A stretch of 64,000 nt of DNA from assembly GCA_964618505.1 (NCBI GenBank), contig CAZUBH010000012.1:2288-66287 (forward strand), given 5' to 3'. The stretch's first letter is position 1; each line of letters starts with the position of its first letter. The translations under genes and the position numbers were made by a program. This DNA is from an uncultured Thermoplasmatales archaeon. GTDB lineage: Archaea > Thermoplasmatota > E2 > DHVEG-1. This document shows positions 19,681 through 53,891 of this stretch, piece after piece. Under the pieces are notes generated by a model. The model searched no databases and was not told the DNA's origin. It saw nothing but the letters and a program-made list of their open reading frames with translations.

Positions 19681-21369
19681 AACGTACTGTTGAATCATCC
19701 TATTTGTATTGAAAAATGATGCGTTTATTGCAATGCAACTTCTCATAGTTCTTATCCAATTATCCCTATCATTGTAAAACTTTGGTATAATCCAAGACTC
19801 TAACTTACTATATAAGTCATTTCTATCTGCATCATCATCAGATTCCTTTTCATTTGATTTTCTAGAACCAATTGACCACCCTGTTATGTTTTCTATGCAT
19901 CCTTCAATCCACCAACCATCAAGTGTACTAAATTGAGGAATGCCATTATGAGCTGCTTTCATGCCAGAAGTGCCAGATGCTTCCATTGGCCTTCGTGGAG
20001 TATTTAGCCATATATCTACTCCAGAAACCATCATTTTTGCAATGGCAATATCATAGTTATGAATGTAAGTCATTTTTATTTTATCATCAAACTGTTTAAT
20101 CGCATTATATATTTTTTTAAGGGATTCTTTTCCGCTATGGTCCTTTGGATGTGCTTTTCCCGCGTAAATTATCTGAATTGAACCTACTTTTTCTGTAATT
20201 TGTTTTAATCTTTCGATATCGGATATAAGAAGATCTGGTCTTTTATAAGGCGTTTGTCTTCTTGCAAATCCTATGGTAAAATGATCATAATTCATGCCTA
20301 TATTATATCTATTATTTACAAAATCTACTAGTGTTTTTTTAGCATTCATATGGGCCTGCCATATTTCAGACTTATCAATGCTAAATGCAGCTCTTAATGT
20401 ATATGGATCAGAACGCCATCCGGGCATATGTTTATCAAATAATCTTTGAAATGGCTCTGAAACCCAAGTTTGTGTATGAACGCCATTTGTTATTGCATCA
20501 ATTGAATATCCTGGAAACATTTCCCTAGATACTTCCCCGTGTTTTTTTGCCACACCATTTACATAATGGCTAAAAAATAAGGCGAGTCGAGTCATATTTA
20601 ATTTATTTTCATAAGTGACTTCACTAATTATTGAATCTGGCAATAAGTCGCCTAACATAGGCTTTGCAATTGACAAATCAAACTGATCGTGTCCTGCAGC
20701 AACTGGAGTGTGGGTTGTAAATACGCATTGCTCTCTTACTTTTTCTGCATCTCTAAATTGTCTAAAAAGCTCTAAAGTCGATAACGCAGCATGTCCTTCA
20801 TTCATATGATATTTATCTATTGTCTTATATCCTAACGATTGAATCGCCCTTACTCCACCAACACCTAAAACTATTTCCTGACCTAGTCTGTATTTGTGAT
20901 CTCCGCCATAAAGATATTTTGTAAGTTCTCTATCTTCACTACTATTTTCTTCTATATTAGTATCCAAAAAGAAAATCGGAACTAAATACCCTCCAATTCC
21001 CTTAACCAAATAATTCCAAATTCTAATCTTTACTTCTCTACCTTCAATATTAACGCTTGTCTTACTAGGAAGAAGTTTTAGAAAGTCATCAATATTAAAA
21101 TTATATGGAAGCTCAATTTGATTTCCTTCTTGATCTATTTTCTGATAAAAATATCCGTTTTCTGAAAGAAGGGTAATTCCAACAACTGGAACATTTTGAT
21201 CGGCACAAGATTTCAATGTGTCTCCAGCAAGTATACCAAGTCCACCACTGTATGTGGGTATGTGCTCATCAATTCCAATCTCCATAGAAAAATATGCAAT
21301 TTTTGGTTTTCCATTAAGGTTTACAGAAAGGTCTGCTTGCTTTTGAACTTCGATACTAGAAGACTCCAT
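19660..21369 (-). CDS. glgP: alpha-glucan (glycogen/maltodextrin) phosphorylase, GT35 short form
   Basis: EASGTSGMKAAHNG is the PLP-lysine motif of GT35 phosphorylases. It is convergent with the GDE gene and overlaps it by 21 nt. Confidence 0.8.
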   Translation of the reverse strand: MESSSIEVQKQADLSVNLNGKPKIAYFSMEIGIDEHIPTYSGGLGILAGDTLKSCADQNVPVVGITLLSENGYFYQKIDQEGNQIELPYNFNIDDFLKLLPSKTSVNIEGREVKIRIWNYLVKGIGGYLVPIFFLDTNIEENSSEDRELTKYLYGGDHKYRLGQEIVLGVGGVRAIQSLGYKTIDKYHMNEGHAALSTLELFRQFRDAEKVREQCVFTTHTPVAAGHDQFDLSIAKPMLGDLLPDSIISEVTYENKLNMTRLALFFSHYVNGVAKKHGEVSREMFPGYSIDAITNGVHTQTWVSEPFQRLFDKHMPGWRSDPYTLRAAFSIDKSEIWQAHMNAKKTLVDFVNNRYNIGMNYDHFTIGFARRQTPYKRPDLLISDIERLKQITEKVGSIQIIYAGKAHPKDHSGKESLKKIYNAIKQFDDKIKMTYIHNYDIAIAKMMVSGVDIWLNTPRRPMEASGTSGMKAAHNGIPQFSTLDGWWIEGCIENITGWSIGSRKSNEKESDDDADRNDLYSKLESWIIPKFYNDRDNWIRTMRSCIAINASFFNTNRMIQQYVLNAYFL

Positions 21370-27916: not shown

Positions 27917-29632
27917 GTGTTAAAAGCAACCATTATTGACGGTTATATAGACGAACCAACCTGCTTAGGGGTTCCACCCTACATAAGTCCTTACCCTAGA
28001 TACATTGCAGGATCGATAATAACTTTTGATAAAAAATCTCAAATATGTTATTTTACAATTGATCAAATTAGAAAAGACGAGTCGTTAGTCAATATAGCAT
28101 CTTCATCAGACATAGTTGTAATTATTGCAGGCGTTTCTGTTCCAGGTAAATATCTTTCTGGATATCCTGCAAGTCCTAATGAAATTATATCTTTGTTAAA
28201 AAAAGTTAAAAATCCGGTTAAAATTTTAGTAGGACCTGCTGCAAAATATGGATTTGGTCTTTTTGGAGGCAAGTCTATAAAAGATATCGAAACATACAAA
28301 GATTTTTTTGATTTAGTTATAAAAGGAGACGCCGAGATAACGATCTTCAATCTTTTAAAAGAAAAATTAAAAGTAGAAAATGTTAATCAATTACAATTAA
28401 GAAAAAATGGCCATTCAATAAGAGATTTTGCAATTTTAGGATCCGATATTGTAACCAAACATCCTTTTTTCCCAGATTATTTAATCGCAGAAATTGAAAC
28501 CTTTAGAGGTTGCCCGAGAAGTTATTCTGGCGGTTGTTCATTTTGTAGTGAGCCTTCAAAAGGTCTTCCAGATTTTCGGCCAATCAAAGATATTGTAGAT
28601 GAAATTGATGAACTTTATAAAAAAGGCATTAAAAATTTTAGACTAGGAAATCAGCCATGTATTTTTTCATATATGGCAAAAAATGCCGAAACAGAAGAAT
28701 TCCCAAAGCCAAACCCTGAATTATTAACTAAGTTATTCTCAAAAATTAGAGAGGTTGCAGCTAATCTTAAAACACTTCACATAGACAACGCCAATCCAGG
28801 AGTTATCGCTAGATTTCCTGATGAATGCAAAAAGATTGCAAAAACAATAATAAAATATCATACACCTGGGGATGTTGCTGCTTTTGGTATAGAAAGCGTT
28901 GATCCACAAGTAATAAAACAAAATAATTTAAAGGCAGATCCTGAAGATTCTTTAAAGGCAATTAAAATTTTAAATGAGGTTGGCTCAAAATTGGGTTCAA
29001 ACGGAATGCCCGAGCTACTTCCTGGACTGAATTTTGTATTCGGATTGAAGGGAGAGACAAAAACAACATTTGATTTAAATTTTCAGTTTTTGAAAAATAT
29101 TTTGGATGAAAAATTGCTAGTTAGAAGAATCAATATAAGACAGGTTATTCCAATCCCAGAAACAAAAATGTATGAATTAGGAATAAAAAATGTAGTTAAG
29201 CACAAGAAAGACTTTAAAATATTTAAAAGGAGAGTAAAGGAAGAAATTGAAAGGCCTATGCTTAAAGAAGTTGTTAAAAAAGGAACTGTTTTAAAAGATG
29301 TGTATACAGAATGCTATGAAGGGAAATTAACATTTGCAAGGCAATTAGGTAGCTATCCTTTACTTATAGGAATCCCAGGGGTTATTCACTTAAACAAATT
29401 TTACAATCTAAAAGTCATAGATTACGGTTTTAGATCTGTAACTGCAATACCTTATCCTCTAGACATTAACAAATCGCAAAGAAAAACATTGGAAGCAATT
29501 CCTGGTATTGGTAAAAAAAGGGTTGTAAAAATTCTTGCAAATCGACCGTTTAAAAACAAGGAAGAGTTAAAGCAAACAATCGATGATTCTGATGTTTTAT
29601 TATCACTTTTGAAATATGTAGAGTTCAAGTGA
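27917..29632 (+). CDS. radical SAM-superfamily enzyme with C-terminal helix-hairpin-helix motif (archaeal COG1031-like)
   Basis: The Cys cluster ETFRGCPRSYSGGCSFC has C-x7-C-x2-C spacing, which is non-canonical. There is a TIM-barrel-like middle region. The C-terminal LEAIPGIGKKRVVKILANRPF is a HhH motif. Confidence 0.5.
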   Translation: MLKATIIDGYIDEPTCLGVPPYISPYPRYIAGSIITFDKKSQICYFTIDQIRKDESLVNIASSSDIVVIIAGVSVPGKYLSGYPASPNEIISLLKKVKNPVKILVGPAAKYGFGLFGGKSIKDIETYKDFFDLVIKGDAEITIFNLLKEKLKVENVNQLQLRKNGHSIRDFAILGSDIVTKHPFFPDYLIAEIETFRGCPRSYSGGCSFCSEPSKGLPDFRPIKDIVDEIDELYKKGIKNFRLGNQPCIFSYMAKNAETEEFPKPNPELLTKLFSKIREVAANLKTLHIDNANPGVIARFPDECKKIAKTIIKYHTPGDVAAFGIESVDPQVIKQNNLKADPEDSLKAIKILNEVGSKLGSNGMPELLPGLNFVFGLKGETKTTFDLNFQFLKNILDEKLLVRRINIRQVIPIPETKMYELGIKNVVKHKKDFKIFKRRVKEEIERPMLKEVVKKGTVLKDVYTECYEGKLTFARQLGSYPLLIGIPGVIHLNKFYNLKVIDYGFRSVTAIPYPLDINKSQRKTLEAIPGIGKKRVVKILANRPFKNKEELKQTIDDSDVLLSLLKYVEFK

Positions 29633-33399: not shown

Positions 33400-35211
33400 G
33401 TGGTGAAAGGAAAAATATTATTATTAATGCTGATTTGCATTCTTCTTTTTTCAAATTTTAGCATTGCTCAAGAAAATGATTGTGGATGTGATGAAGCATA
33501 TAATGCAAATATAAAAAGTAATAATTATAGAACTGGCCTTTTAACAGGTGGACCAAAAATACCGCAAGGAGTTGTTTTTAAAGAAGAATCACCAACTTCA
33601 TGGGACTGGAGAGACGCAGAATATGAAGGAATCTCAGGGGATTGGACCACAGAAATCAAAAATCAAGGTTCATGTGGAAGTTGTTATGCTTTTGGTTCCT
33701 ATGCATCTTTAGAATCGCTAATAAAAATTAAAAGTAAAGACCCTTTTTTATCTGTTGATCTTTCAGAGCAATTCATGGTATCTTGTGGTGAAGAATGGGT
33801 CGATGGAATTCTTGGTTGTAATGGCGCATATTTTGTTCCAACATTTGAATTTTTAGAACAATTCGGAGCAATACCTGAAACTTGCTTCCCATACGTAAGC
33901 GGAGGGAGTGGATATGTTCCTCCCTGTTCAGATAAATGCCCAAATTGGCAAGACCTTCTAATAGAAATTGATGGATGGGGTGTTGTTTCATCAGATGTTG
34001 AATCAATACAAAATGCTTTGATACAATATGGTCCGCTTGTAACTACTATGGTAGTTTATGATGATTTCCACTCTTATCCTGGAGGCATATATGAGCATCC
34101 TGGAAGTGACCCAGATCCAACAAACCACATCGTTTGTATCGTTGGATATGATGATTCTCAGGGGTATTGGATATGTAAAAACAGTTGGGGAACTGGTTGG
34201 GGAGAGAATGGTTGGTTCAGAATTGCCTATGGCGATTGTAAAATCGAACAAGACACTGCATATCTTCAATATACAGATCAAACTGCACCCCAGATTAAAG
34301 TAAAAATGCATAGAATAAAAGAAATTGGAGAAATTGATACTTTTATTGAATTTGGTGCTGACTGGTCTTATAAAATATCAGTTTTTAATGGAGATAGTTG
34401 GACTGAACAAATAAACAATGATTACTCATCAAATGAAGATGATCACATAGAAGATGTTGTTCATAGTTTTAATGTATATGCTGCTGAACCAGAGATTACA
34501 ATAAAGGTTTGGGACAGGGATCTTTTAAGTGGTGATGATTTAGCTGATGTTTCGGGTTATGAAGGAGGTGGTGCAGATAATGATATTTCTGATAGAAGAG
34601 GCGCTATTTTTCATTGTAAATATGATGTAGTAAATAACGAAATAATAGAATTAGACACAATTATTGAAGATGGAAGTTATTACACAAGCTCAGGTACTTA
34701 TAATCCAGATGGGGGGGATAATAGTGATGAAGAAAATGACGCAAAGGTTTGGTTTGATATTTTTGATACATATGAATCTCCTGATGCTGATCTAAAAATT
34801 TATGGCGGTATTCAAGCTGAGGTAGAATCTGGACAAAAAAACTGCAATTTGGGCTCATTTACAGTGGAAAATATAGGTGAAGATCCCTACAGCATATCTG
34901 ATTCATATTTAGATTGGGAGATATTTGAAACTCCTGATTGGGGCTCTAATTGGAGATTTGAGCCAGAGTATGGAGAAGACTTAATAACGGGAGATATTAC
35001 AAATGTTGAGGTTTTTGTAGATGCCCCAAGTCAAGAAGATGATTTTTCAGGAACAATAAAACTACGAAACTCTGAAAATTACAATGACGAGGAGTCTGTA
35101 CTTGTCAATTTAAAAACTCCTATAACAAATAAAGGAATCTTCTGGCAAATCTTAGAATTTTTACAAAATATATTTGAGAAATTGTTTGGATTTATAGGTT
35201 TTCTTACTTAA
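33400..35211 (+). CDS. secreted papain-family cysteine peptidase (C1A) with about 300-aa acidic C-terminal extension
   Basis: GTG start with GGGGG RBS and a signal peptide. The catalytic Cys is in QGSCGSCYAF, the His in NHIVCIVGYDD and the Asn/Trp in KNSWGTGWGENGWFRI. The C-terminal half is rich in D/E/G/Y/W and has no known motif. Confidence 0.8.
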   Translation: MVKGKILLLMLICILLFSNFSIAQENDCGCDEAYNANIKSNNYRTGLLTGGPKIPQGVVFKEESPTSWDWRDAEYEGISGDWTTEIKNQGSCGSCYAFGSYASLESLIKIKSKDPFLSVDLSEQFMVSCGEEWVDGILGCNGAYFVPTFEFLEQFGAIPETCFPYVSGGSGYVPPCSDKCPNWQDLLIEIDGWGVVSSDVESIQNALIQYGPLVTTMVVYDDFHSYPGGIYEHPGSDPDPTNHIVCIVGYDDSQGYWICKNSWGTGWGENGWFRIAYGDCKIEQDTAYLQYTDQTAPQIKVKMHRIKEIGEIDTFIEFGADWSYKISVFNGDSWTEQINNDYSSNEDDHIEDVVHSFNVYAAEPEITIKVWDRDLLSGDDLADVSGYEGGGADNDISDRRGAIFHCKYDVVNNEIIELDTIIEDGSYYTSSGTYNPDGGDNSDEENDAKVWFDIFDTYESPDADLKIYGGIQAEVESGQKNCNLGSFTVENIGEDPYSISDSYLDWEIFETPDWGSNWRFEPEYGEDLITGDITNVEVFVDAPSQEDDFSGTIKLRNSENYNDEESVLVNLKTPITNKGIFWQILEFLQNIFEKLFGFIGFLT

Positions 35212-37670: not shown

Positions 37671-38966
37671 GTGTTAAATGGGAAAATGAAGAAACTAGTA
37701 ATTTTATTTATCACATTATTTCTATTGTTAACTACAATGAGTCAAGCTATTTATCCAATACAAAGAAAATCTAGTAATTTTGAAATAAATTTAGAGATGG
37801 AAGACATAATTCAAGATATAAACGAATCTTTAGTTTTTTATTATCACAATAGATTAATGGATTTTGGCCCGAGATACACGGGATCTATCAACTGCAGGCT
37901 TGCCGGAGAATGGATACACAATGAGTTTGAATCAATGGGTCTTTATGCAGAATTTCACGATTGGAGATGTGCAGGATTTGAAAGTAAAAATATAGTTGCC
38001 ACTTTACCAGGCTCAAATGAGTCAAGCACCGCAATAATTATTTTTAGCGCTCATTACGATTGCACACCAGATTCCCTTGGCGCAGACGATGATGGATCGG
38101 GCGTTGCTGCTATAATGGCCGCAGCAAAAGTTCTCAGCGGGCATTCATTTAACCATACAATTCAATTCATAGCATTTTCAGGTGAAGAAGTTGGAACCTA
38201 CGGAAGTTTTTGCTATGCTCAGGATGCTTATGGGCGAGAAGACAACATTTATGCAGTTATCAATGCAGATATGATAGGGTATGCAGATACAAGCAAGGGT
38301 GGAAGAATTATTAATTTTCATTGTCCTGAAAGATCAAGATGGATTGCAGATTTTGCAAGCAGATTAAGTGATAAATATCTTGATTTAGTAGATATAGGAG
38401 TTGAGACTCGCCCAAACTATATTGGTGCTGATCATCAAGCATTTTCTTACTATGGATATGACGGAGTTTGGATTGCACATCATGATGGATACCAATGGGC
38501 AAATTCTCCAGAGGACACTCCAGATCATATAAATCATACATATCAAGTCAAGGCAACAAAATTTTTGACAGCTCTAGTTGTAGAACTTGCCAGCGAACCA
38601 ATTGAAGTCCAAGTAATGATAAAAACTCCTAATGAGGGAACTTTTTATCTGTTTAACAGACCTATTTTTAAATTGACATTTTCAAGGTTATGGTATTTAG
38701 GTTTTAGAGGCATTACTGTTATAAGAGGCAGAACTGTCGCAAGTGCTGAAGTACTTAGTTGTGAAGAAATAGAAAAAGTAGTTTTTTGTATAGATGGAAA
38801 CTTTATGTATTGGGACTACGAACCACCTTATGAATGGGAAATACAAGGAAGATTCGCAGGTCTTTTTGGCAGGCATACATTAAAAGTTTATACTTATACA
38901 ACAACAGGAAAAATTGCATCTGATGAGATGGACATAAATATTAGGACTTTAAACAAGATGTACTAA
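37671..38966 (+). CDS. secreted M28-family zinc aminopeptidase
   Basis: Signal peptide. Zn ligands are in HYDCTP, DDDGSGVAAIM, FSGEEVGTYGS and DMIGY. There is a C-terminal beta-sandwich extension. Confidence 0.8.
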   Translation: MLNGKMKKLVILFITLFLLLTTMSQAIYPIQRKSSNFEINLEMEDIIQDINESLVFYYHNRLMDFGPRYTGSINCRLAGEWIHNEFESMGLYAEFHDWRCAGFESKNIVATLPGSNESSTAIIIFSAHYDCTPDSLGADDDGSGVAAIMAAAKVLSGHSFNHTIQFIAFSGEEVGTYGSFCYAQDAYGREDNIYAVINADMIGYADTSKGGRIINFHCPERSRWIADFASRLSDKYLDLVDIGVETRPNYIGADHQAFSYYGYDGVWIAHHDGYQWANSPEDTPDHINHTYQVKATKFLTALVVELASEPIEVQVMIKTPNEGTFYLFNRPIFKLTFSRLWYLGFRGITVIRGRTVASAEVLSCEEIEKVVFCIDGNFMYWDYEPPYEWEIQGRFAGLFGRHTLKVYTYTTTGKIASDEMDINIRTLNKMY

Positions 38967-39006: not shown

Positions 39007-39675
39007 ATGAGAAAATCATATCTGGTAAGTCTAAATTGTATTATCATATTTTTTATTGTTTCAACTCCTGGCGGATATAGTTCAGAAAATATCGAAATTA
39101 AATCTTGTAAAAAATTACTTTTAACTGGTTTTGAACCATTTGACATATTTCATATTAATCCATCTGAACTAATCGTTGAAAATTTAGATGAGCAAATAAT
39201 AGCTGATAAAGAGATCATTGGATTTGTTTTACCAGTAGATTTTGATAAATCATTAGAAAATATTACAGATTTGATTGAATTATACGAGCCAGATTTTGTT
39301 GTCAGCCTTGGTCTTGATGCAAGTGCTGAATTAATTGAGGTGGAGAAATGTGGTATAAATTTAAAAAGAGGGGAAGGCGATATTTTGCCATGCAGATTAG
39401 ATCGTTCAGGACCATTTTTTAGATTTTCTGATTTTAATGAAAGAGAAATTGTAAAAGAATTAAAAGATGAGGGAATTAAAGCACAACAGAGTTTTTTTGC
39501 AGGTCTTTATGTTTGTAATGCAGTATTGTATGGAACTTTAGATTATATAGATGACAAGAACTTAGATATAAAATCAGGTTTTATCCACGTTCCTTTGCTT
39601 GATACCCAAGATCCTTCTGGAATGAGTATTGATGAATTGATTAGTGCAACAAAAATAATCATAAAGTCTTTGTAA
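39007..39675 (+). CDS. pcp: pyroglutamyl-peptidase I (peptidase C15) with N-terminal signal/anchor
   Basis: LLTGFEPF at the N-terminus, the catalytic Cys in GLYVCNAVLY and the His in FIHVPLL. A hydrophobic leader (LVSLNCIIIFFIVSTPGG) precedes them. Confidence 0.75.
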   Translation: MRKSYLVSLNCIIIFFIVSTPGGYSSENIEIKSCKKLLLTGFEPFDIFHINPSELIVENLDEQIIADKEIIGFVLPVDFDKSLENITDLIELYEPDFVVSLGLDASAELIEVEKCGINLKRGEGDILPCRLDRSGPFFRFSDFNEREIVKELKDEGIKAQQSFFAGLYVCNAVLYGTLDYIDDKNLDIKSGFIHVPLLDTQDPSGMSIDELISATKIIIKSL

Positions 39676-41369: not shown

Positions 41370-42644
41370 ATGAATAAAATCAAAGTTTTAAATATTCTAA
41401 TATTATCTGCAATAATATTATTATCTGCTGTAAGTGCACAATCTAATTTTAATAAGGAAAATAAAAATTTTTCAAAAATCTCGGTCATTTATGATCTTAT
41501 AACAGAGGAATTATTAGAAGAATATCTTGAAACACTTGTTGGATATTCGCCAAGAATGACTGGGACATATGGCTGTGAAAAATCTGCAGAATATATATTT
41601 GATTCATTTGAACAAATGGGGCTTGATGTTAGATATCAAAATTGGACTTCATTTGGAAATAGATACTATCCAAGATTATTTGAAGGGAAAAATATAGAAG
41701 CAACGCTTCATGGTAATAACGCATCATCAGAAAAAGTAGTAATTTTTAATGCACATTATGACACCGTTTGGGATACGCCGGGTGCAAATGATGATGGTTC
41801 AGGCACCGCCGCTGTGCTTGCAGCAGCTTATGCTTTAAGTCAATTTGATTTTGAGCATACAATAAAGTTCGTAACATTTTCGGGTGAAGAGGTAGGTCTT
41901 TTGGGAAGTCAGGCTTATGCTAAAGAAGCTTATGAGAATAATTACGACATTTATTTGGAAATAAATGTTGATATGATAGGTAAAGCCACCTCAAAAGAGA
42001 CTGGTAGAAAAATGACACTTGTTTCAACTGAGGATGTTGAATGGTCTTTTGATATATTTGAATCAATTAATTCTTCTTATGAGCTTAATTTTACAATAAA
42101 TAAACATGGATTAAACAGAGACGATAGAGGAGGAAGTGATTACAAATCTTTTATTGACTACGGCTATGAATCTTTAATATGCTGGCAAGCTGAAGGTGAT
42201 GAATTTATGCATACCTCACAAGACGACATGTCAAATGTAAATCTTAGCTATTTAACCAATATGACAAGAATAATTGCAGGCTCAATTGGATATATTGCAG
42301 ACAGTGACACAAACTACCCACAAGTAAGAATAAATTCTCCAAAACAAGGAAAATTATATTATAAAGGCTCTGAAAAACGCAATATAAACACATTAAAATC
42401 AATTGTACTGGATGATATTTGGATATATATTGATGTAATGTATAAAGATGAAAAAATAGAAAAAGCAGAGTTTTACTTTGATAATGTATTAGAATTTGTA
42501 GACACCAAAGAGCCTTTCAAATGGCACATGAATAAATTTTCTTTGGGAAAACATAGGATAACTATTATAACTCACGATAGTAAAGGTCAGAAATCAACTG
42601 ATTATAAAGACATAATGTTTTTCAATATTTTTAAAAACACGTAA
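41370..42644 (+). CDS. secreted M28-family zinc aminopeptidase, paralogue of 37671..38966
   Basis: Signal peptide and the Zn-ligand motifs HYDTV, DDGSGTAAVL, FSGEEVGLLGS and DMIG. Confidence 0.8.
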   Translation: MNKIKVLNILILSAIILLSAVSAQSNFNKENKNFSKISVIYDLITEELLEEYLETLVGYSPRMTGTYGCEKSAEYIFDSFEQMGLDVRYQNWTSFGNRYYPRLFEGKNIEATLHGNNASSEKVVIFNAHYDTVWDTPGANDDGSGTAAVLAAAYALSQFDFEHTIKFVTFSGEEVGLLGSQAYAKEAYENNYDIYLEINVDMIGKATSKETGRKMTLVSTEDVEWSFDIFESINSSYELNFTINKHGLNRDDRGGSDYKSFIDYGYESLICWQAEGDEFMHTSQDDMSNVNLSYLTNMTRIIAGSIGYIADSDTNYPQVRINSPKQGKLYYKGSEKRNINTLKSIVLDDIWIYIDVMYKDEKIEKAEFYFDNVLEFVDTKEPFKWHMNKFSLGKHRITIITHDSKGQKSTDYKDIMFFNIFKNT

Positions 42645-42684: not shown

Positions 42685-44664
42685 GTGCATAAGAGTTTAG
42701 AAATGAGCAGAACACTTTCGTCACTTGACATCTATGTAATTGTATCGGAGCTTCAAGAACTCTTAGGAAGTTACGTAGATAAAATATATCAACCTACTCA
42801 TAACGAGGTATTAATTAAAGTAAATAATAAAAAAACAGCAAAAAAAGAGGCAATATATGCTTCTTGCAGTGAATTTTTGTGCCTCACATCAAAAAAAATT
42901 GATGTACCTCAAAAACCGCCAAGTTTTGCAATGGCACTTAGAAAATATATTTCCAATGGAATTATTACAAAAATATGGCAGCATGAATTTGATAGAATAA
43001 TAAAAATTAATGTTAGTAAAAAAGATGGGGAATATACTCTAATTTTTGAGATTTTTAAAAACGGCAATATTATTCTTTTAAGACCTGACGGCACAATATT
43101 AATTCCTTTAATTACACAAAAATGGTCACATAGAATCATAAAAGGAAAACAAAAATATGAATCTCCCCCCTCGCAGTTAAACACATTTGATTTATCATTT
43201 GAGGGTTTTTCAAATATAATTAAAAACAGTGACAAAGATTTAGTAAGAACTCTTGCAGTTGATATAAATTTAAGTGGAAAATATGCTGAAGAGGTTTGCT
43301 TTAGAGCAGATTTTAGCAAAAACATTAAAACAAGTGATTTGAGTCCAAATCAAATTAGCGAAATTTTTGAGTCGTTACGTAGCTTTTTAGCAAAGTTTCA
43401 AAATAAAAATTTCCGGCCCAATTATGTTTCAAAAGAGGGTAAAATAATAGAGATTTGTCCTGTTATTTTCAAGAGCTATCCAGATTATGAAATAAAAAAA
43501 TTAGATAGCTTTTGTAGAGGTTATGAAAAATTCATAGAAAAAAGAGAGGTTAAAACAAAACGTCAAAGCAAACAAGATGAAAAACTTGGAAAGCTTAAAA
43601 GAATGATTGATCAACAAAAAAAAACCATAGAAAAATTTGAAAAAAAGATAGTTGATAAAAAAAAGCAAGGGGACGTCTTATACCTAAATTATCAAAAAAT
43701 TGAAGAAATACTTAACAAAATTACAGATGCTTTAAAGTTAAAAGATAAAACAGAAGTTATAAAAGAAATAAACAAAAATGATTTTGTAAAAATCTTTGAC
43801 CCTACATATGATAAATTTATATTAATATTAAAAGATGAAAAAGGAAAAAATATAGAAATAAATCTTGATTTTAGAAAAAGCGTATCAGAAAACGCAGAAG
43901 ATGCATATGAGTCTAGTAAAAAATTCCAAGATAAAATTCAAGGAGCAAAAGACGCATTAAAAAAAACAGAAGAAAATTTAGATAAATTAAAAGAAAAAGA
44001 AGTTTTAAAGCAGGAGAAAAATAAGGAAAAATCTAATCAAAAAAATTTCTGGTTTGAAAGATTTAGATGGTTTATATCATCTGAAGGAAATATAGTTGTT
44101 GCAGGAAAAGATGCGAAAAGTAATGAAATAGTTGTAAAAAAATATCTTAACGATGGGGATAGATACTGTCATGCGGATGTTCATGGAGCTCCTAGTTGCG
44201 TTATAAAAAACAAAAATATTGAAAATGATACTATAAAAATTTCTGAAAAAACACTAGAAGAAGCATGCATTTTTGCAGCATCTTACTCAAAGGCATGGAA
44301 TCAATTTGCAGAAGCACAATCATATTGGGTTTTACCAGAGCAAGTTAGCAGAACACCAGAAAGTGGAGAATATCTCCCAAAAGGAGCTTTTATTATTAGA
44401 GGAAAAAGAAATCATTTTAGATGTAAACTTGAAATTGCAATTGGAGAGATAAAAATAAAAGATGTGAAAAAAATTATGGCAGGTCCAATAAAGGCAGTTA
44501 ACTCAAAATCTGAAAAATACGTGATAATTAATCCTGGACAAGAAAAGAAAAATGTTGTAGCAAATAAGCTTTCCAAAATATTTAATGTACAAATTGAAGA
44601 TATACAAAAAATACTGCCCCCTGGAGACATAAATATCGTAAAATCAGAAGGGATCAAAATATAG
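42685..44664 (+). CDS. NFACT-family protein (archaeal Rqc2/NEMF/FbpA homologue) with NFACT-N, coiled-coil and NFACT-R (DUF814) domains
   Basis: The C-terminal FERFRWFISSEGNIVVAGKDAKSNEIVVKKYLNDGDRYCHADVHGAPSCVIKN is the DUF814/NFACT-R signature. A long central coiled coil is present. Confidence 0.7.
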   Translation: MHKSLEMSRTLSSLDIYVIVSELQELLGSYVDKIYQPTHNEVLIKVNNKKTAKKEAIYASCSEFLCLTSKKIDVPQKPPSFAMALRKYISNGIITKIWQHEFDRIIKINVSKKDGEYTLIFEIFKNGNIILLRPDGTILIPLITQKWSHRIIKGKQKYESPPSQLNTFDLSFEGFSNIIKNSDKDLVRTLAVDINLSGKYAEEVCFRADFSKNIKTSDLSPNQISEIFESLRSFLAKFQNKNFRPNYVSKEGKIIEICPVIFKSYPDYEIKKLDSFCRGYEKFIEKREVKTKRQSKQDEKLGKLKRMIDQQKKTIEKFEKKIVDKKKQGDVLYLNYQKIEEILNKITDALKLKDKTEVIKEINKNDFVKIFDPTYDKFILILKDEKGKNIEINLDFRKSVSENAEDAYESSKKFQDKIQGAKDALKKTEENLDKLKEKEVLKQEKNKEKSNQKNFWFERFRWFISSEGNIVVAGKDAKSNEIVVKKYLNDGDRYCHADVHGAPSCVIKNKNIENDTIKISEKTLEEACIFAASYSKAWNQFAEAQSYWVLPEQVSRTPESGEYLPKGAFIIRGKRNHFRCKLEIAIGEIKIKDVKKIMAGPIKAVNSKSEKYVIINPGQEKKNVVANKLSKIFNVQIEDIQKILPPGDINIVKSEGIKI

Positions 44665-45717
44665 GTGAAAACATTGAAAGTTTTGTTTAAAGATCCGAAA
44701 AATAAAGAAATTAAACTTGTTGCAGAAAATCTTGACGATATTTGGCATTTATACAATTTAATTGAAGAAGGAGACCTTGTAAGGGCGGTATGCTTTAGAA
44801 CAGATGACCAAAAGGACGATAAAATAAGATCTAAAAAATCAGAAAAAAAGAAAATGAAGCTTGGGATCAGGATAGAAAAAATAAACTTTCATGAGTTTTC
44901 AGATAGACTTAGATTGCATGGAACAATTGAAGAAGGTCCCCAAGACCTTGGATCTTATCACACTCTCAATATTGAAGCAGATAAAATGAATAGTTTTTCT
45001 ATTGTAAAAGACAATTGGAAACACCATCATTTAGAAAGAATTGATGAAGCAGTAAAACAAAGAAAACAGCCACTTCTTATCTTTGTCTCTTTGGATGAAG
45101 ATGAAGCTACTGTAGCGATTCTTAGACAGAGCGGGATACAAAAAATTGCAGATATTAGCTCAAAAAAATCTGGAAAAATGTATGATTGCCAAGATACATC
45201 AAAAGACTATTTTGGCGAAATATTCTCGGTTTTAAAGACTGTAAAAAAAGAGGAGTCCCCAGTTGTGGTAATCGGACCTGGCTTTACAAGAGAACATTTT
45301 ATTAAAGAAGGTAAGCAAAAATATCCTGATATATTTGAAAATTGTAGAACTCATGCAACAGGGCATTCGGAAATGAATGGAATAAATGAGGCGATAAAAC
45401 AAGGCGTTGTTGATCAAATTACAAAAGAAAATAGAGTCGCAATAGAAACTAAATTTGTTGAAAAGGTATTTGAAGAAATTAAAAAAGATGGTTTAGTATC
45501 ATATGGAGAATCTCAAGTTGTTGATGCTCTAGAAAATGGTGCTGTTGAAAGACTTTTAATTTCTGATTTGCTTGTTAGAAGAGATAATGGAATAAAAATA
45601 CTTGAAATTGCAAAAAATACTAACAGTAAATTTACCATAATTAATACAATGCACGAAGCAGGTAAAAAATTTGAAGGAATTGGTGGTATTGCTGCTCTAC
45701 TTCGTTTTAAAATTTGA
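44665..45717 (+). CDS. pelA: Pelota / aDom34 (mRNA surveillance, ribosome rescue factor)
   Basis: GTG start immediately after the NFACT stop. There is an N-terminal Sm-like domain, a central domain and a C-terminal eRF1-like domain (GGIAALLRF tail). Confidence 0.75.
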   Translation: MKTLKVLFKDPKNKEIKLVAENLDDIWHLYNLIEEGDLVRAVCFRTDDQKDDKIRSKKSEKKKMKLGIRIEKINFHEFSDRLRLHGTIEEGPQDLGSYHTLNIEADKMNSFSIVKDNWKHHHLERIDEAVKQRKQPLLIFVSLDEDEATVAILRQSGIQKIADISSKKSGKMYDCQDTSKDYFGEIFSVLKTVKKEESPVVVIGPGFTREHFIKEGKQKYPDIFENCRTHATGHSEMNGINEAIKQGVVDQITKENRVAIETKFVEKVFEEIKKDGLVSYGESQVVDALENGAVERLLISDLLVRRDNGIKILEIAKNTNSKFTIINTMHEAGKKFEGIGGIAALLRFKI

Positions 45718-46494
45718 TTATATCATCAAACGACCATATGTCATTGATTTATAAAATTCTGACAATGCCGTTTCATATATTTCGTCAAATGGATCTGGGT
45801 CATCTCCAGAATCGTTATCACTAGTATCTTTTGTATCATCTTCCATTTCAACAAGATATGGATCATAATAAGAATATGTAATATCTATTGTGAAATCATT
45901 ACCAGATTCGCCAAGTTTTTTAAGAATTCTTATTTCACCTATATCACAAATTACTGTTATTTTAAAATCTTCATTTACCCATGTGTCGTCATAGTATGGC
46001 TCTTCCATTAGCATAGACTCTGCTTCTGACATGTCTTCTGCCTCAATTATATCTGTTGAAGGTATTCCATCAACATTTATGATGATTTCAAAATTACCTT
46101 CTTTTGTCTGCTTTTCACTGGTAGCAGAACCCTCATAAGTCATGCCATCAGGAGTTTCTATTTGTACTGTTATTGTATCTAGACCAAATCTACCAAGGAG
46201 AGGAGCTTTGTCATCAATCCAACTAACATTGAATACAATTTCATTTAAATTTCCTTTATTAAATGAAACGGTCCCTTCATAAGGAGTATTTTTATCAGCA
46301 AAATCTGAAATTGTTTGAGATCCTGATTTAAGATCCCAGTTTACCTCATACATTTCTAATTTGTCATTATCTTTTGAATCGTCATCGCCATTGTCTTCAG
46401 GTGCTTCATACAAAGCAATACCGATTCCAGCAATTACAATTACAGCTACAGCAATAAGAATAATCAGTTTATCGTTTTTTTTCAGGTTTATCAT
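45718..46494 (-). CDS. membrane-anchored, highly acidic extracytoplasmic protein of unknown function
   Basis: A single N-terminal TM (LIILIAVAVIVIAGIGIALY) then about 230 aa rich in D/E. The C-terminal tail is DTSDNDSGDDPDPFDEIYE. Confidence 0.4.
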   Translation of the reverse strand: MINLKKNDKLIILIAVAVIVIAGIGIALYEAPEDNGDDDSKDNDKLEMYEVNWDLKSGSQTISDFADKNTPYEGTVSFNKGNLNEIVFNVSWIDDKAPLLGRFGLDTITVQIETPDGMTYEGSATSEKQTKEGNFEIIINVDGIPSTDIIEAEDMSEAESMLMEEPYYDDTWVNEDFKITVICDIGEIRILKKLGESGNDFTIDITYSYYDPYLVEMEDDTKDTSDNDSGDDPDPFDEIYETALSEFYKSMTYGRLMI

Positions 46495-46611
46495 AGATAC
46501 ACCTTTATTATTTAATTTATATTTATCTGTAAATATAAGTATGTTTCTTCCTTTATTAAATTTTTCCTTTATTTTATATAAATATGCAACTTTAAATCAT
46601 AAAATAAAAAT

Positions 46612-47619
46612 CTAATCTGTTATAATCGAAATAAATTGCCCGCATTTGTCGCATTTATTATTTTTTAAACCAATATTATCTGAAGAAAAACCTTGCCTTT
46701 TTATAATCAAATTACCGCAATTCGGACAAATTGTATTTTCATATTCGAAATTGGGAATATTTCCCAAATAAACGAAATTAATTCCAATTGATTTTGAAAT
46801 TTTATAGATTTCTTCAAGAGTATTTATTGGTGTTGGAGAAAATTTATTCATTTTGTACTGTGGATGAAATCTAGAAAAATGCAAAGGAGTGTTATTGCCA
46901 AGATTGTTGGCAACCCAATTACAATAATTTTCAATTTCGCTTTTTGAGTCATTTAAACCTGGTATTACAAGATAAGTTAGTTCTATGTGAATATCTAAAT
47001 CTTTAGCCATTTTGCAGGTTTCAAGAACTGGCTTAAGCTTGGCTTTGCAAATTTTTTTATAAAAATCTTGGTTAAATGCTTTAACATCTATATTCATAGC
47101 ATCAAGATAATTTGAAATTTCTTCCAGAGGTTTTTTAGTAATATACCCATTTGTCACATAAACTGTATACAATCCATTTTGTTTGGCAAGTTTAGCACAA
47201 TCATAAGTATATTCGTGCCAAATAGTTGGTTCATTGTAAGTCCAAGCAATTCCTCTGCAATTGCTATTTTTTGCAATTTCTATAATTTCTTCGGGTTTCT
47301 TTTCCTCTAATAAATAGTCATTATTGTTTGCTGTTGAAATTCCATAATTTTGACAATTTTCACATTTAAAGTTACATCCCACAGAACCCAAAGAAAGAAC
47401 ATTTGATCCGGGATAAAAATGAAACAATGGTTTTTTTTCTATTGGATCAATGGCAACAGATGAGCAGGAACTATAAATTAAAGAATAGAGCTTTTCTTTT
47501 TCGTTTTTTCTAACACCACAAATACCTACGTTATCGGGCTTGATTATACACTTATGATTGCATAAAAAACATTGTACATTTTCATTTTGGGGCTTGTAAA
47601 ACTTTGCTTCTACTCTCAT
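46612..47619 (-). CDS. AmmeMemoRadiSam-system-type radical SAM enzyme (PFL-activase-like) with C-terminal zinc ribbon
   Basis: The N-terminal QCFLCNHKCIIKPDNVGICGVR auxiliary Cys motif and the canonical SVGCNFKCENCQN radical SAM motif are typical of TIGR04337-like enzymes. The C-terminus carries CPNCG...CDKCG. Confidence 0.65.
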   Translation of the reverse strand: MRVEAKFYKPQNENVQCFLCNHKCIIKPDNVGICGVRKNEKEKLYSLIYSSCSSVAIDPIEKKPLFHFYPGSNVLSLGSVGCNFKCENCQNYGISTANNNDYLLEEKKPEEIIEIAKNSNCRGIAWTYNEPTIWHEYTYDCAKLAKQNGLYTVYVTNGYITKKPLEEISNYLDAMNIDVKAFNQDFYKKICKAKLKPVLETCKMAKDLDIHIELTYLVIPGLNDSKSEIENYCNWVANNLGNNTPLHFSRFHPQYKMNKFSPTPINTLEEIYKISKSIGINFVYLGNIPNFEYENTICPNCGNLIIKRQGFSSDNIGLKNNKCDKCGQFISIITD

Positions 47620-47646
47620 TAAGGTTTTTCATTGCTTCAGTACTTA

Positions 47647-48960
47647 TTAACCTTCTCCCAAATGCATTTCTCTAAGACTTAAAATAAAACCTCTTCTGGG
47701 ATATCTATCGTTTATTTGGGGTTGCATTTCTTCAAAATCTTTAAAGTCTTCATCATTTTCCAAGATATATTTTGCATAGAAAAATGCTTCTTCAACAGAC
47801 ACCATGTCGTTTTTAAATAGACCTAATTGACGTTGAATTCCTCTGCTAAACAAACCGGATTTGTATCCATCTGCATTACCTGTTTTCAAGCCTTCAAACC
47901 ATAAAAGAGAAAATATTGGGCCTCTCAAAGTGCTAGTAAATCCTTTCCTAAATTTACTAGTACTTGAAATCACTATTCTGCCATTTTGAGGTATTTTTGA
48001 TCTGAATAAAATTGACGTTGGAAAGTTAAGTATTGTTTTATCAGCAAATCCGCCACAAAAACAGGCATCAATTATTATACTAACCTTGCTAGATTTTAAA
48101 GGTAGCAAAATCTGACCAAAATCTCTATCAGAGAGAATGTCATCCCACAAAAATATCTGACTTCTCTCAAAAAGTTTTCCACCAGCAAGTGAATCATTGG
48201 AATCCCCATAACCGTGGCTAAACATCCAAATGAAAACTTCGCTATCTCTATATCTGTTTGATTCGTTTATTATTCTATCAAATGTTTTTAATACATTATT
48301 TTTTGTTGCCCCGCCATATGTAAATGCATAATCATGTTGTCTTTGCTGCAAGGTTTCAATTTTTTCACCATATCCGTTATCTGATCTAATCCAACCATCG
48401 TCAAATAAGATGACAATATTTGAAGTTGCATAATTTAAACTTTCAACAAAATAAGCTGCCATTTCTTCTGCCAGATATAGTCCACCGTTGCCAAGTTTAC
48501 TTTCATTTTCTTCAGGAAAGTTTGCAGTTGCAATAAATACGGCATACTTATGAGAGTCAATTTCAACAGAGCGAGGGTTATCAACTTCAATTTGAATTTT
48601 TTCAATTTTTGAAAAATCTATTCCATCCCAAGCCCTAACACTTATTGAGTAAACGCCATCCAAAAGCTTGTAAGTGTCCCAATCAAAGCTCCATTTTATT
48701 GTTCCTTGAGCTTTTTTCCAATCTCCATCCCCCATCTTAACTTCTATTTTTTTGATTTGCTCATTTCCATCTAAATCATAAGAAGTGCCACTTATCATGA
48801 CAAGACTTGAAACTTTCATTTTGTCAATAGGATAATTGATTTCTACTACGGGTTTTTCATTTTTATTTTTAGAATCATCCTCTAAACAACCCGAAAATGT
48901 TGTAACTAAAAGTAGTAAAACGAAAAGTATTGCCAGCAGCTTTTTTTTCATCACTCTCAT
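47647..48960 (-). CDS. secreted or lipoprotein-like caspase-fold cysteine peptidase, C13 legumain/GPI-transamidase-like
   Basis: Signal peptide with SGC lipobox-like motif. There is an N-terminal Ig-like beta-sandwich. The catalytic His is in WMFSHGYG and the Cys in IIDACFCGGF, as in legumain-family His-Gly...Ala-Cys dyads. Confidence 0.6.
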   Translation of the reverse strand: MRVMKKKLLAILFVLLLLVTTFSGCLEDDSKNKNEKPVVEINYPIDKMKVSSLVMISGTSYDLDGNEQIKKIEVKMGDGDWKKAQGTIKWSFDWDTYKLLDGVYSISVRAWDGIDFSKIEKIQIEVDNPRSVEIDSHKYAVFIATANFPEENESKLGNGGLYLAEEMAAYFVESLNYATSNIVILFDDGWIRSDNGYGEKIETLQQRQHDYAFTYGGATKNNVLKTFDRIINESNRYRDSEVFIWMFSHGYGDSNDSLAGGKLFERSQIFLWDDILSDRDFGQILLPLKSSKVSIIIDACFCGGFADKTILNFPTSILFRSKIPQNGRIVISSTSKFRKGFTSTLRGPIFSLLWFEGLKTGNADGYKSGLFSRGIQRQLGLFKNDMVSVEEAFFYAKYILENDEDFKDFEEMQPQINDRYPRRGFILSLREMHLGEG

Positions 48961-49079
48961 TAATATATTTATTATAGCTGGTTTAAAATATTTATTTTAC
49001 ATTTATTACCCATTTAAAATATTCAAAAGATTTATCATAATAATATCGGTTATGTCTCGTATAAATTGGGGCGATATAT

Positions 49080-51101: not shown

Positions 51102-51145
51102 TTATTTATGATTATAATCTTGAGTTAAATAAGTTTTGAAAAAGT

Positions 51146-51219
51146 AGCGGGGAGTGGATTTGAACCACTGATCTACGGGTTATGGGCCCGTCGGGATTTC
51201 CTGACTACCCCACCCCGCT
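51146..51219 (-). tRNA. tRNA-Met (anticodon CAT), initiator type
   Basis: Minus-strand read: AGCGGGGTGGGGTAGTCAGGAAATCCCGACGGGCCCATAACCCGTAGATCAGTGGTTCAAATCCACTCCCCGCT. It has a 7-bp acceptor stem with A1:U72, a T-loop TTCAAAT, an anticodon loop CCCATAA and three consecutive G:C pairs (G29-31/C39-41), all typical of archaeal tRNAi. No encoded CCA. Confidence 0.8.
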
Positions 51220-52394: not shown

Positions 52395-53891
52395 ATGAAA
52401 AAATCTCTTGATTTTATATACAAGCAACAAAAGGAACTATCAATTTTTGGAGGAATTGGGGCGCTTCTTGGTTGGGACCAGATGACGTATATGCCAAAAT
52501 CAGGTGCTCAAGAAAGAGCAGAACAAAGTGCACTTATTTCTCGGCTTGCACACGAGAGAGTTGTATCGGATGTTTTTTGGAAACATATAAAAAATTTATC
52601 AAAATTAGATGTGTTTGAAAGCCTATCTGAAAAAGATAAAATTGTTGTTAAAAGGCTTAAAAAAGATGTTGAAAAATCAAGAAAAATTCCTTCAGATTTT
52701 GTTCAAAGATTTTCGAAAACAACAACTATTGCTTATCAATCATGGGAAAAAGCTCGAAATAAATCTAATTTTAAATTATTTTCAAAAGACCTTCAAAAGA
52801 TAATTGAGCTTGAAAAAGAATATTGCAAATATATAGATATAAAAGGTCATCTTTACGATAATTTACTCGATGATTACGAAGAGGGAATGAATACTAAAAA
52901 ATTAAAAAATGAGTTTAATTTTTTAAAAAGGGAATTAAAAAATATTTTACAAAAAATTACTGAAAGTGATATATATCAATCACAAAAAGAATTACAACTA
53001 AAAATAAATAAAAATGCTCAACAAAAAATAGGCAAATTAGTACTTGAAAGATTAGATCTTCCAGATGATAGATTCAGAATGGATGTTTCAACTCATCCTT
53101 TCACAACATCAATGGGATATGATGATGTAAGAATTACTACAAGCTACGAAAGAGAAAATGGTCTTTTTTCTTTTTTTTCAACAATACATGAGGCAGGACA
53201 TGCTTTATACGAACTAGGGTTGCCAAAAAACGAATACAAAAATACTGTAATTTCGGATTCCCCATCATTGGGGCTTCATGAATCCCAATCTAGATTTTGG
53301 GAAAATATGATTGCAAGAAACAAAAATTTTTGGAGTTGTTTTTATCCGGAATTTAAAAAAATCTTAAAAAACGATAGTCTAGATGAATTATATAAAAATG
53401 TGAATCAAGTAAAACCTTCCTTAATTAGAGTTGAAGCCGATGAATTGACATATTGTTTACATGTAATTCTTCGTTTTGAGATAGAAGTTGGTTTAATCGA
53501 AGATAGAATTAAAATCTCTGAATTACCAGAAATATGGAATGAAAAAATGAAAAATATTTTAGGAATTTCACCCAATAATGACAAAGATGGGGTTCTACAA
53601 GACATGCATTGGAGTGGAGGTAGTTTTGGTTACTTTCCAACATATGCTATTGGATCTATATATGCATCTCAAATTTTTAATCAAATGAAAAAAGAAAATA
53701 AAGATTTAGAATCTGAAATTAAAAATGGTAATTTTGAAAATATACTATTATGGCTTAAAAAAAATATACATATTTATGGTAGGATGATAAACTCAGATGA
53801 GATAATTAAAAGATGTTGTAAAGAAGGATTAAAATCCAAAATATTTATTGATTATTTAAAGAAAAAATATTTTGAAATTTATGAAATCTAG
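52395..53891 (+). CDS. carboxypeptidase Taq-like metallocarboxypeptidase (M32)
   Basis: The HEXXH motif appears as IHEAGHALYE and the M32 motif HESQSRFWEN is present. About 500 aa. Confidence 0.8.
   Translation: MKKSLDFIYKQQKELSIFGGIGALLGWDQMTYMPKSGAQERAEQSALISRLAHERVVSDVFWKHIKNLSKLDVFESLSEKDKIVVKRLKKDVEKSRKIPSDFVQRFSKTTTIAYQSWEKARNKSNFKLFSKDLQKIIELEKEYCKYIDIKGHLYDNLLDDYEEGMNTKKLKNEFNFLKRELKNILQKITESDIYQSQKELQLKINKNAQQKIGKLVLERLDLPDDRFRMDVSTHPFTTSMGYDDVRITTSYERENGLFSFFSTIHEAGHALYELGLPKNEYKNTVISDSPSLGLHESQSRFWENMIARNKNFWSCFYPEFKKILKNDSLDELYKNVNQVKPSLIRVEADELTYCLHVILRFEIEVGLIEDRIKISELPEIWNEKMKNILGISPNNDKDGVLQDMHWSGGSFGYFPTYAIGSIYASQIFNQMKKENKDLESEIKNGNFENILLWLKKNIHIYGRMINSDEIIKRCCKEGLKSKIFIDYLKKKYFEIYEI

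Follow-up and report, generated by a model that had tools for sequence, protein, structure and literature searches.

A predicted surface caspase-fold peptidase of a Thermoplasmatales archaeon, its constant acidic neighbor and a radical SAM gene repeatedly lost in related species

Introduction

Do three genes that stand side by side in an uncultured archaeon, encoding a secreted peptidase, a radical S-adenosylmethionine enzyme (rSAM) and a very acidic membrane protein, form a single working system, or do they simply share a chromosomal neighborhood? The question is raised by a locus in a stretch of 64,000 nt of Thermoplasmatales DNA (contig CAZUBH010000012.1). This stretch is referred to here as the window; window coordinates refer to the whole of it, and L numbers denote related loci in other genomes. 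A first-pass annotation had proposed that the trio constitutes a protein-maturation system, in which an rSAM thought to act on a protein is combined with a legumain-like, possibly transpeptidase-like, enzyme and a candidate substrate.

The family to which the rSAM belongs gives this question its wider interest. The function of the triad formed by AMMECR1, Memo and an rSAM is a long-standing puzzle, and AMMECR1 and MEMO1 have links to human disease. In 2019 Burroughs et al., in the Journal of Biological Chemistry (JBC), reportedly linked the system to nucleotide-base or isoprenoid modification, and a literature search on 'AmmeMemoRadiSam' returned incidental mentions only. A lineage that paired the rSAM with a different identifiable partner would provide a handle on its chemistry. 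The members of the triad show a 'persistent gene-neighborhood association' (PMC2034487), and the published proposal for the associated rSAM is RNA-base modification (PMC2034487), which runs counter to the premise of a protein substrate for this family.

We consider it probable that the locus comprises a surface clan-CD peptidase, a constant surface-protein neighbor and a labile, probably co-transcribed rSAM, and not an integrated three-component system. Each of the genes belongs to a known kind, and the peptidase and acidic-protein families are without curated models.

Repeated loss of the rSAM gene

Relatives of the peptidase were found in 154 GTDB species, each represented by one genome, and the best 80 loci were analyzed. 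These best 80 of the 154 are all from metagenome-assembled genomes (MAGs) of Thermoplasmatota, SG8-52 and SM1-50 among them, and we take the genomes to belong, probably, to Marine Benthic Group D (Thermoprofundales). The block is ordered with purM divergent from the peptidase gene, followed by the rSAM gene where present and the acidic-protein gene, and then by convergent Pelota and NFACT genes; the flanking purM, Pelota and NFACT genes occur in nearly all 80 loci. Neighbors were located in each locus by tblastn, and the 67 loci with complete downstream sequence were counted. All three genes were present in 40/67. In a further 23 of the 67, the peptidase and acidic-protein genes were retained and the rSAM gene was cleanly absent, the intervening gap of 108-250 nt leaving no room even for a gene remnant. 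One locus (L064) kept the rSAM gene and had a different downstream gene in place of the acidic-protein gene, and three (L067, L076 and L079) had neither partner, their peptidases forming a divergent paralogue clade. In one more genome (L002), the peptidase and rSAM genes are followed by an unrelated coiled-coil gene.

The species lacking the rSAM gene are scattered on the peptidase tree. On an independent tree of Pelota and NFACT (56 taxa, 988 columns), the Fitch minimum was 7 state changes of the rSAM gene, with 6-8 over 50 bootstraps. Because repeated insertion at an identical site is implausible, these changes are best read as repeated losses, with the peptidase and acidic-protein genes retained each time, and this pattern undercuts the proposal of a three-part maturation system. 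The conservation that does exist extends to the housekeeping genes on either side. As purM, Pelota and NFACT are conserved equally well, preservation of the trio reflects lineage synteny and is not evidence of specific coupling; no co-inheritance of the three genes was found beyond this general synteny. That the paralogous peptidase loci are without both partners likewise speaks against coupling.

Sequence co-variation leads to a similar view. An rSAM that modified one of its neighbors should leave in that neighbor a residue that co-varies with the presence of the enzyme. Among 70 peptidase orthologues (44 from rSAM-plus and 26 from rSAM-minus loci), no residue tracked the rSAM gene beyond clade structure, and the strongest associations merely mark one large rSAM-minus clade. 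One candidate, the second Cys of the peptidase motif DACFCGG (C302), is variable among orthologues and mostly Ser; it was rejected as a tracking residue, being Cys in 8/44 rSAM-plus and 2/26 rSAM-minus sequences. In the acidic protein, a Cys-containing C-terminal tail (TGCGRYI) was present at 16 rSAM-plus loci and 1 rSAM-minus locus and was confined to few clades. Tail type was likewise discarded as a correlate of the rSAM gene, since the association arises through clade structure only. The tail of the window protein has no Cys although an rSAM gene adjoins it, and the tail is equally conserved in a clade made up entirely of rSAM-minus loci. The features of a system that processes a ribosomally synthesized and post-translationally modified peptide (RiPP) were also absent, with neither a SPASM or RiPP domain nor a small precursor residue co-varying with the rSAM gene. 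The predicted compartments differ as well, the rSAM being cytoplasmic and the peptidase and the acidic domain extracellular. These observations suggest an absence of functional coupling among the three genes.

The caspase-fold peptidase

The peptidase begins with a signal peptide and lipobox, followed by an Ig-like Big_7 domain and a clan-CD caspase-fold domain. Its N-terminus, MRVMKKKLLAILFVLLLLVTTFSGC, contains a lipobox-like FSGC (lipobox Cys25) that is kept in 17/20 homologues, and with the Big_7 match this bears out the secreted, Ig-bearing lipoprotein described at first pass. The proposed His/Cys dyad also stood up to alignment. His249 lies in FSHGYG (residues 247-252) and Cys300 in DACFCGG (residues 298-304), and H249, G250, D298, A299 and C300 are invariant among 20 homologues of 56-67% identity; C300 is further present in 70/70 orthologues classifiable for presence or absence of the rSAM gene. 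An AlphaFold2 model (predicted local distance difference test, pLDDT, 68.8; predicted template-modeling score, pTM, 0.72) is good for the Ig domain and for the alpha/beta core as far as residue 300 and poor for the C-terminal third. In it, H249 is the last residue of strand 241-249 and C300 the last of strand 292-300. This caspase fold, with His-Gly and Ala-Cys at the C-terminal ends of adjacent strands, places the protein in clan CD.

Assignment to the C13 (legumain) family, by contrast with the dyad, was not supported by comparison with the family models. The window protein has no match to Peptidase_C13 (PF01650) or Peptidase_C14 (PF00656) in Pfam at E<=1. A Pfam scan of 20 relatives gave weak matches to Peptidase_C14 in 9/20 (best E = 1.4e-6) and to Peptidase_C13 in 5/20 (best E = 0.0058), and the fold is matched by metacaspases (C14) as well as or better than by legumain. 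NCBI gives the name 'caspase family protein' to some of the 629 homologues, and PF00656 is among the precomputed assignments of some. Against PDB sequences, phmmer with the peptidase gave no match, and hmmsearch with the family profile gave no significant match for the catalytic domain. Judged from its sequence, the product of this gene is a genuine enzyme of clan CD that has the caspase fold, an intact dyad and predicted catalytic activity, and it represents a divergent family between C14 and C13.

Peptidases of this clan have been reported before in the lineage. Clostripain (C11), gingipain (C25) and legumain (C13) are encoded in Thermoprofundales MAGs, C14B peptidases are expressed, and an extracellular protein-degrading lifestyle has been ascribed to the group (PMC6461988, PMC9585477). 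That the clan-CD types legumain C13 and C14B had already been reported in these MAGs (PMC6461988) argues against the earlier interpretation of the locus.

In two of the paralogous loci (L076, 9878-15063; L079, 699-8402), the peptidase gene lies beside genes for an amino-acid permease and a P-type cation ATPase, which hints at a link to nutrient uptake. One of these two species, M9B1D, carries the syntenic copy (L072) as well.

The radical SAM enzyme

The rSAM scores 362.7 bits against the NCBIfam model TIGR04337 (cutoff 220), covering model positions 7-329 of 349, and the next best model, for the pyruvate formate-lyase (PFL) activase, gives 74.2 bits against a cutoff of 231.75. The first-pass assignment to the AmmeMemoRadiSam type is thereby confirmed, and the match to PF04055 (87.7 bits, cutoff 29.5) is also clear. 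The protein contains the CxxxCxxC core motif (C82/C86/C89), an N-terminal four-Cys motif of the form C-x2-C-x3-C-x9-C (C17, C20, C24 and C34) and a zinc-ribbon-like CxxC...CxxC at its C-terminus. Pfam and NCBIfam scans found no SPASM, RiPP-recognition or other peptide-binding domain. As the sequence has neither a signal peptide nor a transmembrane segment, the enzyme is predicted to be cytoplasmic.

Genes for AMMECR1 and Memo were not found in the window, in agreement with the first-pass annotation. The scan combined Pfam on 20 open reading frames (ORFs), precomputed Pfam assignments for 37.6-59.2 kb obtained through L003, hallmark motifs and tblastn, with some large ORFs covered by the motif and tblastn scans alone. 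The tblastn probes were human AMMECR1 and MEMO1 sequences validated with Pfam at 160.7 and 261.6 bits, respectively; the best match had E = 0.1 and was judged to be noise. These scans were likewise negative in the 84 related loci (1.26 Mb), so that in this lineage the rSAM gene was never seen next to the partners that give the family its name.

The window contains two more rSAM genes, neither of them connected with this locus, which encode proteins of 316 and 571 aa (Table 1); the longer has sub-threshold helix-hairpin-helix matches at its C-terminus.

The acidic membrane protein

The third gene encodes a protein with one N-terminal transmembrane helix, 58 Asp and Glu residues against 19 Lys and Arg, and an isoelectric point (pI) of 4.05, the lowest among the 48 window ORFs of at least 150 aa; its description as a membrane-anchored and very acidic protein is accurate. 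The helix is followed by a jelly-roll beta-sandwich (residues ~47-216), a variable, acidic linker of low complexity and, at the C-terminus, a short tail of ~15 aa that is conserved. Homologues are ~250 aa long, with a nearly invariant N-terminus (M-x-LKKNDK and then the transmembrane helix) and a moderately conserved ectodomain. At least three clade-specific forms of the tail occur, ...PPYLSMIIxTGCGRYI, ...GEFYxNLxYGRGMI (the type in the window) and ...AGLTRW. The N-terminal MxLKKNDK was considered as a shared sorting signal and rejected, since none of the other proteins encoded in 1.26 Mb of related DNA (84 related loci with ~10 kb of flank each) carries it.

The protein has no match in Pfam, NCBIfam or PDB sequences. 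When 1.84 billion representative proteins were searched exhaustively with a profile, a family of 461 members was recovered, 253 of them at E<=1e-10, and nearly all 461 are of the same size. In the rare longer members, the jelly-roll is joined to Y_Y_Y, PKD, Big_13, beta-helix or CarboxypepD_reg modules, and in one distant relative (P0191, 546 aa) it is inserted in a large extracytoplasmic loop of an ABC-2-type permease. Fusion solely to extracytoplasmic modules or to a permease loop supports an N-in/C-out topology with the domain outside the cell, and the protein thus appears to be of type II, membrane-anchored with an ectodomain that is predicted to be extracellular.

Gene layout and surroundings

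The three genes are co-directional and tightly spaced, as had been described (Table 1). The spacer between the peptidase and rSAM genes has no room for an independent promoter, so these two genes are probably co-transcribed. The AT-rich spacer between the rSAM and acidic-protein genes contains a TATA-like TTTATATA upstream of the acidic-protein gene and a Shine-Dalgarno-like AAGGTG 6-11 nt before its ATG, and on the strength of these elements that gene probably has its own promoter. In related loci that contain the rSAM gene, the distance from the peptidase to the rSAM gene, measured from tblastn coordinates, is mostly 34-50 nt (range 34-94, with an outlier of 258 nt in L071), and that from the rSAM to the acidic-protein gene is mostly 135-293 nt, with an outlier of 1810 nt in L075.

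Table 1. Positions of the three genes, their parts and other features within the window
Feature	Position (nt)	Strand	Description
Peptidase gene	47647-48960	minus	437 aa
Ig-like Big_7 beta-sandwich	48637-48852	minus	residues 37-108; Pfam 27.6 bits, cutoff 24.1
Catalytic-dyad segment	48061-48216	minus	His249 codon 48214-48216; Cys300 codon 48061-48063
Peptidase-rSAM spacer	47620-47646	minus	27 nt, peptidase stop codon to rSAM start codon
rSAM gene	46612-47619	minus	335 aa
rSAM CxxxCxxC motif	47353-47376		C82/C86/C89
rSAM-acidic gene spacer	46495-46611	minus	117 nt, AT-rich
Acidic-protein gene	45718-46494	minus	258 aa
Jelly-roll beta-sandwich	45847-46356		residues ~47-216 of the acidic protein
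purM-peptidase interval	48961-49079		119 nt
NFACT/Rqc2-like and Pelota genes	42685-45717	plus	659 aa and 350 aa
Further rSAM gene	7621-8571	plus	316 aa; PF04055 63 bits
Further rSAM gene	27917-29632	plus	571 aa; PF04055 45.7 bits
Peptidase-type gene	33400-35211
Peptidase-type gene	37671-38966
Peptidase-type gene	39007-39675
Peptidase-type gene	41370-42644
Peptidase-type gene	52395-53891
Glycogen/alpha-glucan-like cluster	14241-21369		judged by eye
tRNA-Met (CAT)	51144-51219	minus

The GC content at the locus is about 0.30-0.33 and the base composition matches that found elsewhere in the window, so that the locus bears no island signature. A defense-island reading was set aside because composition was ordinary and PADLOC gave no defense-system match. 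For the three proteins PADLOC returned a single match, a generic resemblance of the rSAM core to pVip (33-36 bits); neither the peptidase nor the acidic protein matched any model.

Several features of the surrounding block were also recorded. Many related loci contain, between purM and the peptidase gene and on the peptidase strand, an AIRS/AIRS_C gene (~327 aa; PurM/ThiL/HypE/SelD-like fold), for example at 6917-7903 in L001 and at 6974-7954 in L002; the window has no such gene in the corresponding interval. Its presence does not obviously track that of the rSAM gene, and L013 has room for the AIRS gene and no rSAM gene. On the other side, the NFACT/Rqc2-like gene directly precedes the Pelota gene, its stop codon sharing one base with the GTG start of Pelota (...44664 / 44665...). 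The Pelota gene ends at 45717 and the acidic-protein gene at 45718, so the two are convergent with zero gap. Adjacency of NFACT and Pelota, both ribosome-rescue genes, is kept in nearly all 80 related loci.

Farther away, the window is rich in peptidase genes, with two M28 peptidases, one C15 pyroglutamyl peptidase and one M32 carboxypeptidase in the precomputed Pfam assignments and, seen by eye, a papain-like QGSCGSCYAF motif in a secreted protein of 603 aa. This dense set fits the protein-degrading lifestyle described for Thermoprofundales. The glycogen/alpha-glucan-like cluster comprises, again by eye, two glycosyltransferase-like genes together with GH57-like, debranching-enzyme-like and glucan-phosphorylase-like genes, and the tRNA-Met gene was the sole RNA gene detected in the window.

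Discussion

The dyad and TIGR04337 comparisons came out as the first-pass annotation had anticipated and the neighborhood comparison was mixed, leaving that interpretation supported in part and the idea of a system undercut. In the reading we prefer, that of a surface peptidase with a constant surface neighbor and a labile rSAM, lipid-modified Cys25 would anchor the peptidase on the outside of the membrane, the Ig-like domain would act as a stalk that holds it away from the membrane, and His249 and Cys300 would cleave extracellular or envelope proteins. The acidic jelly-roll protein, as the constant chromosomal neighbor of the peptidase, may serve as its partner, anchor or substrate. The rSAM, presumably cytoplasmic, appears to have been dispensable at the locus in evolution; its substrate is most likely unrelated to its neighbors and would lie elsewhere, as in the still-uncharacterized AMMECR1/Memo-associated pathway.

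Several points weigh against this reading. Where downstream synteny breaks (L002 and L064), it is the rSAM gene that stays with the peptidase gene and the acidic-protein gene that is lost. The spacing of ~34-50 nt between the peptidase and rSAM genes in related loci suggests that the two are transcribed, and hence also regulated, together. AMMECR1 and Memo were not found within ~10 kb of the rSAM gene in any of the 84 related loci, and genomes that lack the rSAM gene at this locus might carry a TIGR04337 copy elsewhere. There is also a precedent for the maturation of exported enzymes by a cytoplasmic rSAM, as anSME modifies an active-site Cys or Ser of sulfatases.

Of the alternatives, the one that survives best assigns no role to the rSAM and regards the other two genes as a surface module, in which the clan-CD lipoprotein has the acidic jelly-roll protein as its specific target and would, for example, cut off the conserved tail or the N-terminal anchor of that protein, or attach it to an envelope component in the manner of GPI8/PorU-like transpeptidases. 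The pair is indeed kept where the rSAM gene has been lost, but its adjacency is inseparable from the general synteny of a block in which purM, Pelota and NFACT are equally conserved, and the acidic-protein gene probably has a promoter of its own. The two genes are moreover separated in L002 and L064, peptidase paralogues occur with no acidic-protein gene adjoining them, and no fusion of the two domains was found. We regard such a module as unlikely.

A role for the rSAM as accessory would have it modify the peptidase or the tail of the acidic protein before export, after which the peptidase would process the acidic protein outside the cell. The tight spacing of the peptidase and rSAM genes, both in the window (27 nt) and in relatives, speaks for this, as do the form of the acidic protein, with its variable acidic linker leading to a conserved ~15-aa tail in at least three variants, and the skew of the Cys-bearing TGCGRYI tail toward loci with the rSAM gene. 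Sulfatase maturation by anSME again offers a precedent for rSAM chemistry before export. Predicted bacterial peptide-processing systems, furthermore, include an rSAM 'related to those found in Memo-Ammecr1 systems' (PMC7159879). What weighs against it is the loss of the rSAM gene on at least 6-8 occasions with both neighbors kept, together with the failure of any peptidase residue to track the enzyme. The tail evidence is no more favorable, for the association of the GCG-type tail is limited to few clades, Cys is missing from the tail of the window protein despite the adjoining rSAM gene, and the tail is conserved to the same degree in the all-minus clade. The acidic protein, a well-folded surface protein of 250 aa, is unlike a precursor, which would be small and evolve fast. 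SPASM and RiPP-recognition domains are missing from the rSAM, and enzyme and proposed substrates are predicted to occupy different compartments. An accessory maturation role is in our judgment improbable.

It is quite improbable, for its part, that where the rSAM gene is kept, the TIGR04337 enzyme has been recruited from the AMMECR1/Memo context to modify the lipoprotein or the acidic-protein tail before export. If true, this would represent the first protein substrate for the TIGR04337 family and a new archaeal surface-protein maturation pathway. Weakest of all is the suggestion that the caspase-fold protein is a pseudo-peptidase, a surface or adhesion protein without catalysis, and that the locus has no proteolytic role, which would fit a window protein that falls under every Pfam peptidase threshold and a structural model of low confidence in its C-terminal third, but which is highly improbable because His249-Gly and Asp-Ala-Cys300 are invariant over at least 70 orthologues whose overall identity is no more than about 51-67%, as would be expected if purifying selection acted on a working enzyme.

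With the surface peptidase, its constant neighbor and the labile rSAM as the preferred reading, the adjacency reflects lineage synteny and the rSAM is dispensable, so the locus gives no handle on rSAM chemistry. The natural pattern of rSAM presence and absence, with its at least 6-8 events, could nevertheless be mined genome-wide for the true co-inheritance of TIGR04337. The peptidase represents a divergent, well-conserved clan-CD family that has no separate model in Pfam and that was found in at least 154 species genomes. The extracellular peptidases of sediment-dwelling Thermoplasmatota matter for the turnover of sedimentary carbon. Its constant neighbor, the acidic protein, adds an unannotated family of membrane-anchored jelly-roll proteins predicted to lie at the cell surface.

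Relation to known systems

The rSAM shares with AmmeMemoRadiSam enzymes the CxxxCxxC core, the N-terminal four-Cys motif and the C-terminal zinc ribbon. The difference lies in its context, as the usual partners AMMECR1 (PF01871, TIGR04335) and Memo (PF01875, TIGR04336) are not nearby, and the gene instead follows that of a surface peptidase and is often lost.

The nearest precedent for the earlier maturation idea is provided by the peptide-processing systems predicted by Kaur et al. 2020 (PMC7159879). Their parts resemble those of the present locus, with its peptidase, its rSAM from that broad family and an adjoining protein that has an acidic stretch and a conserved C-terminal tail. The likeness is superficial. 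Those systems employ a zincin metallopeptidase and small, rapidly diverging precursors that have a conserved C-terminal peptide, and belong to bacterial conflict systems, whereas the locus described here has a clan-CD peptidase, a folded protein of 250 aa and a dispensable rSAM, lies in a housekeeping block and is negative in PADLOC.

In the anSME-sulfatase pairing, the gene for a cytoplasmic rSAM similarly adjoins a gene whose enzyme product is exported and has an essential Cys. The rSAM here, however, is not of the SPASM/anSME type, and the peptidase keeps its Cys and stays conserved in many species without the rSAM gene.

The peptidase itself falls below the family thresholds of the C14 and C13 peptidases. 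Legumain has an LSAM domain and metacaspases a p10 region or prodomain, neither of which is recognized in the window protein; it is arranged instead as a lipobox, a Big_7 Ig domain and a catalytic domain.

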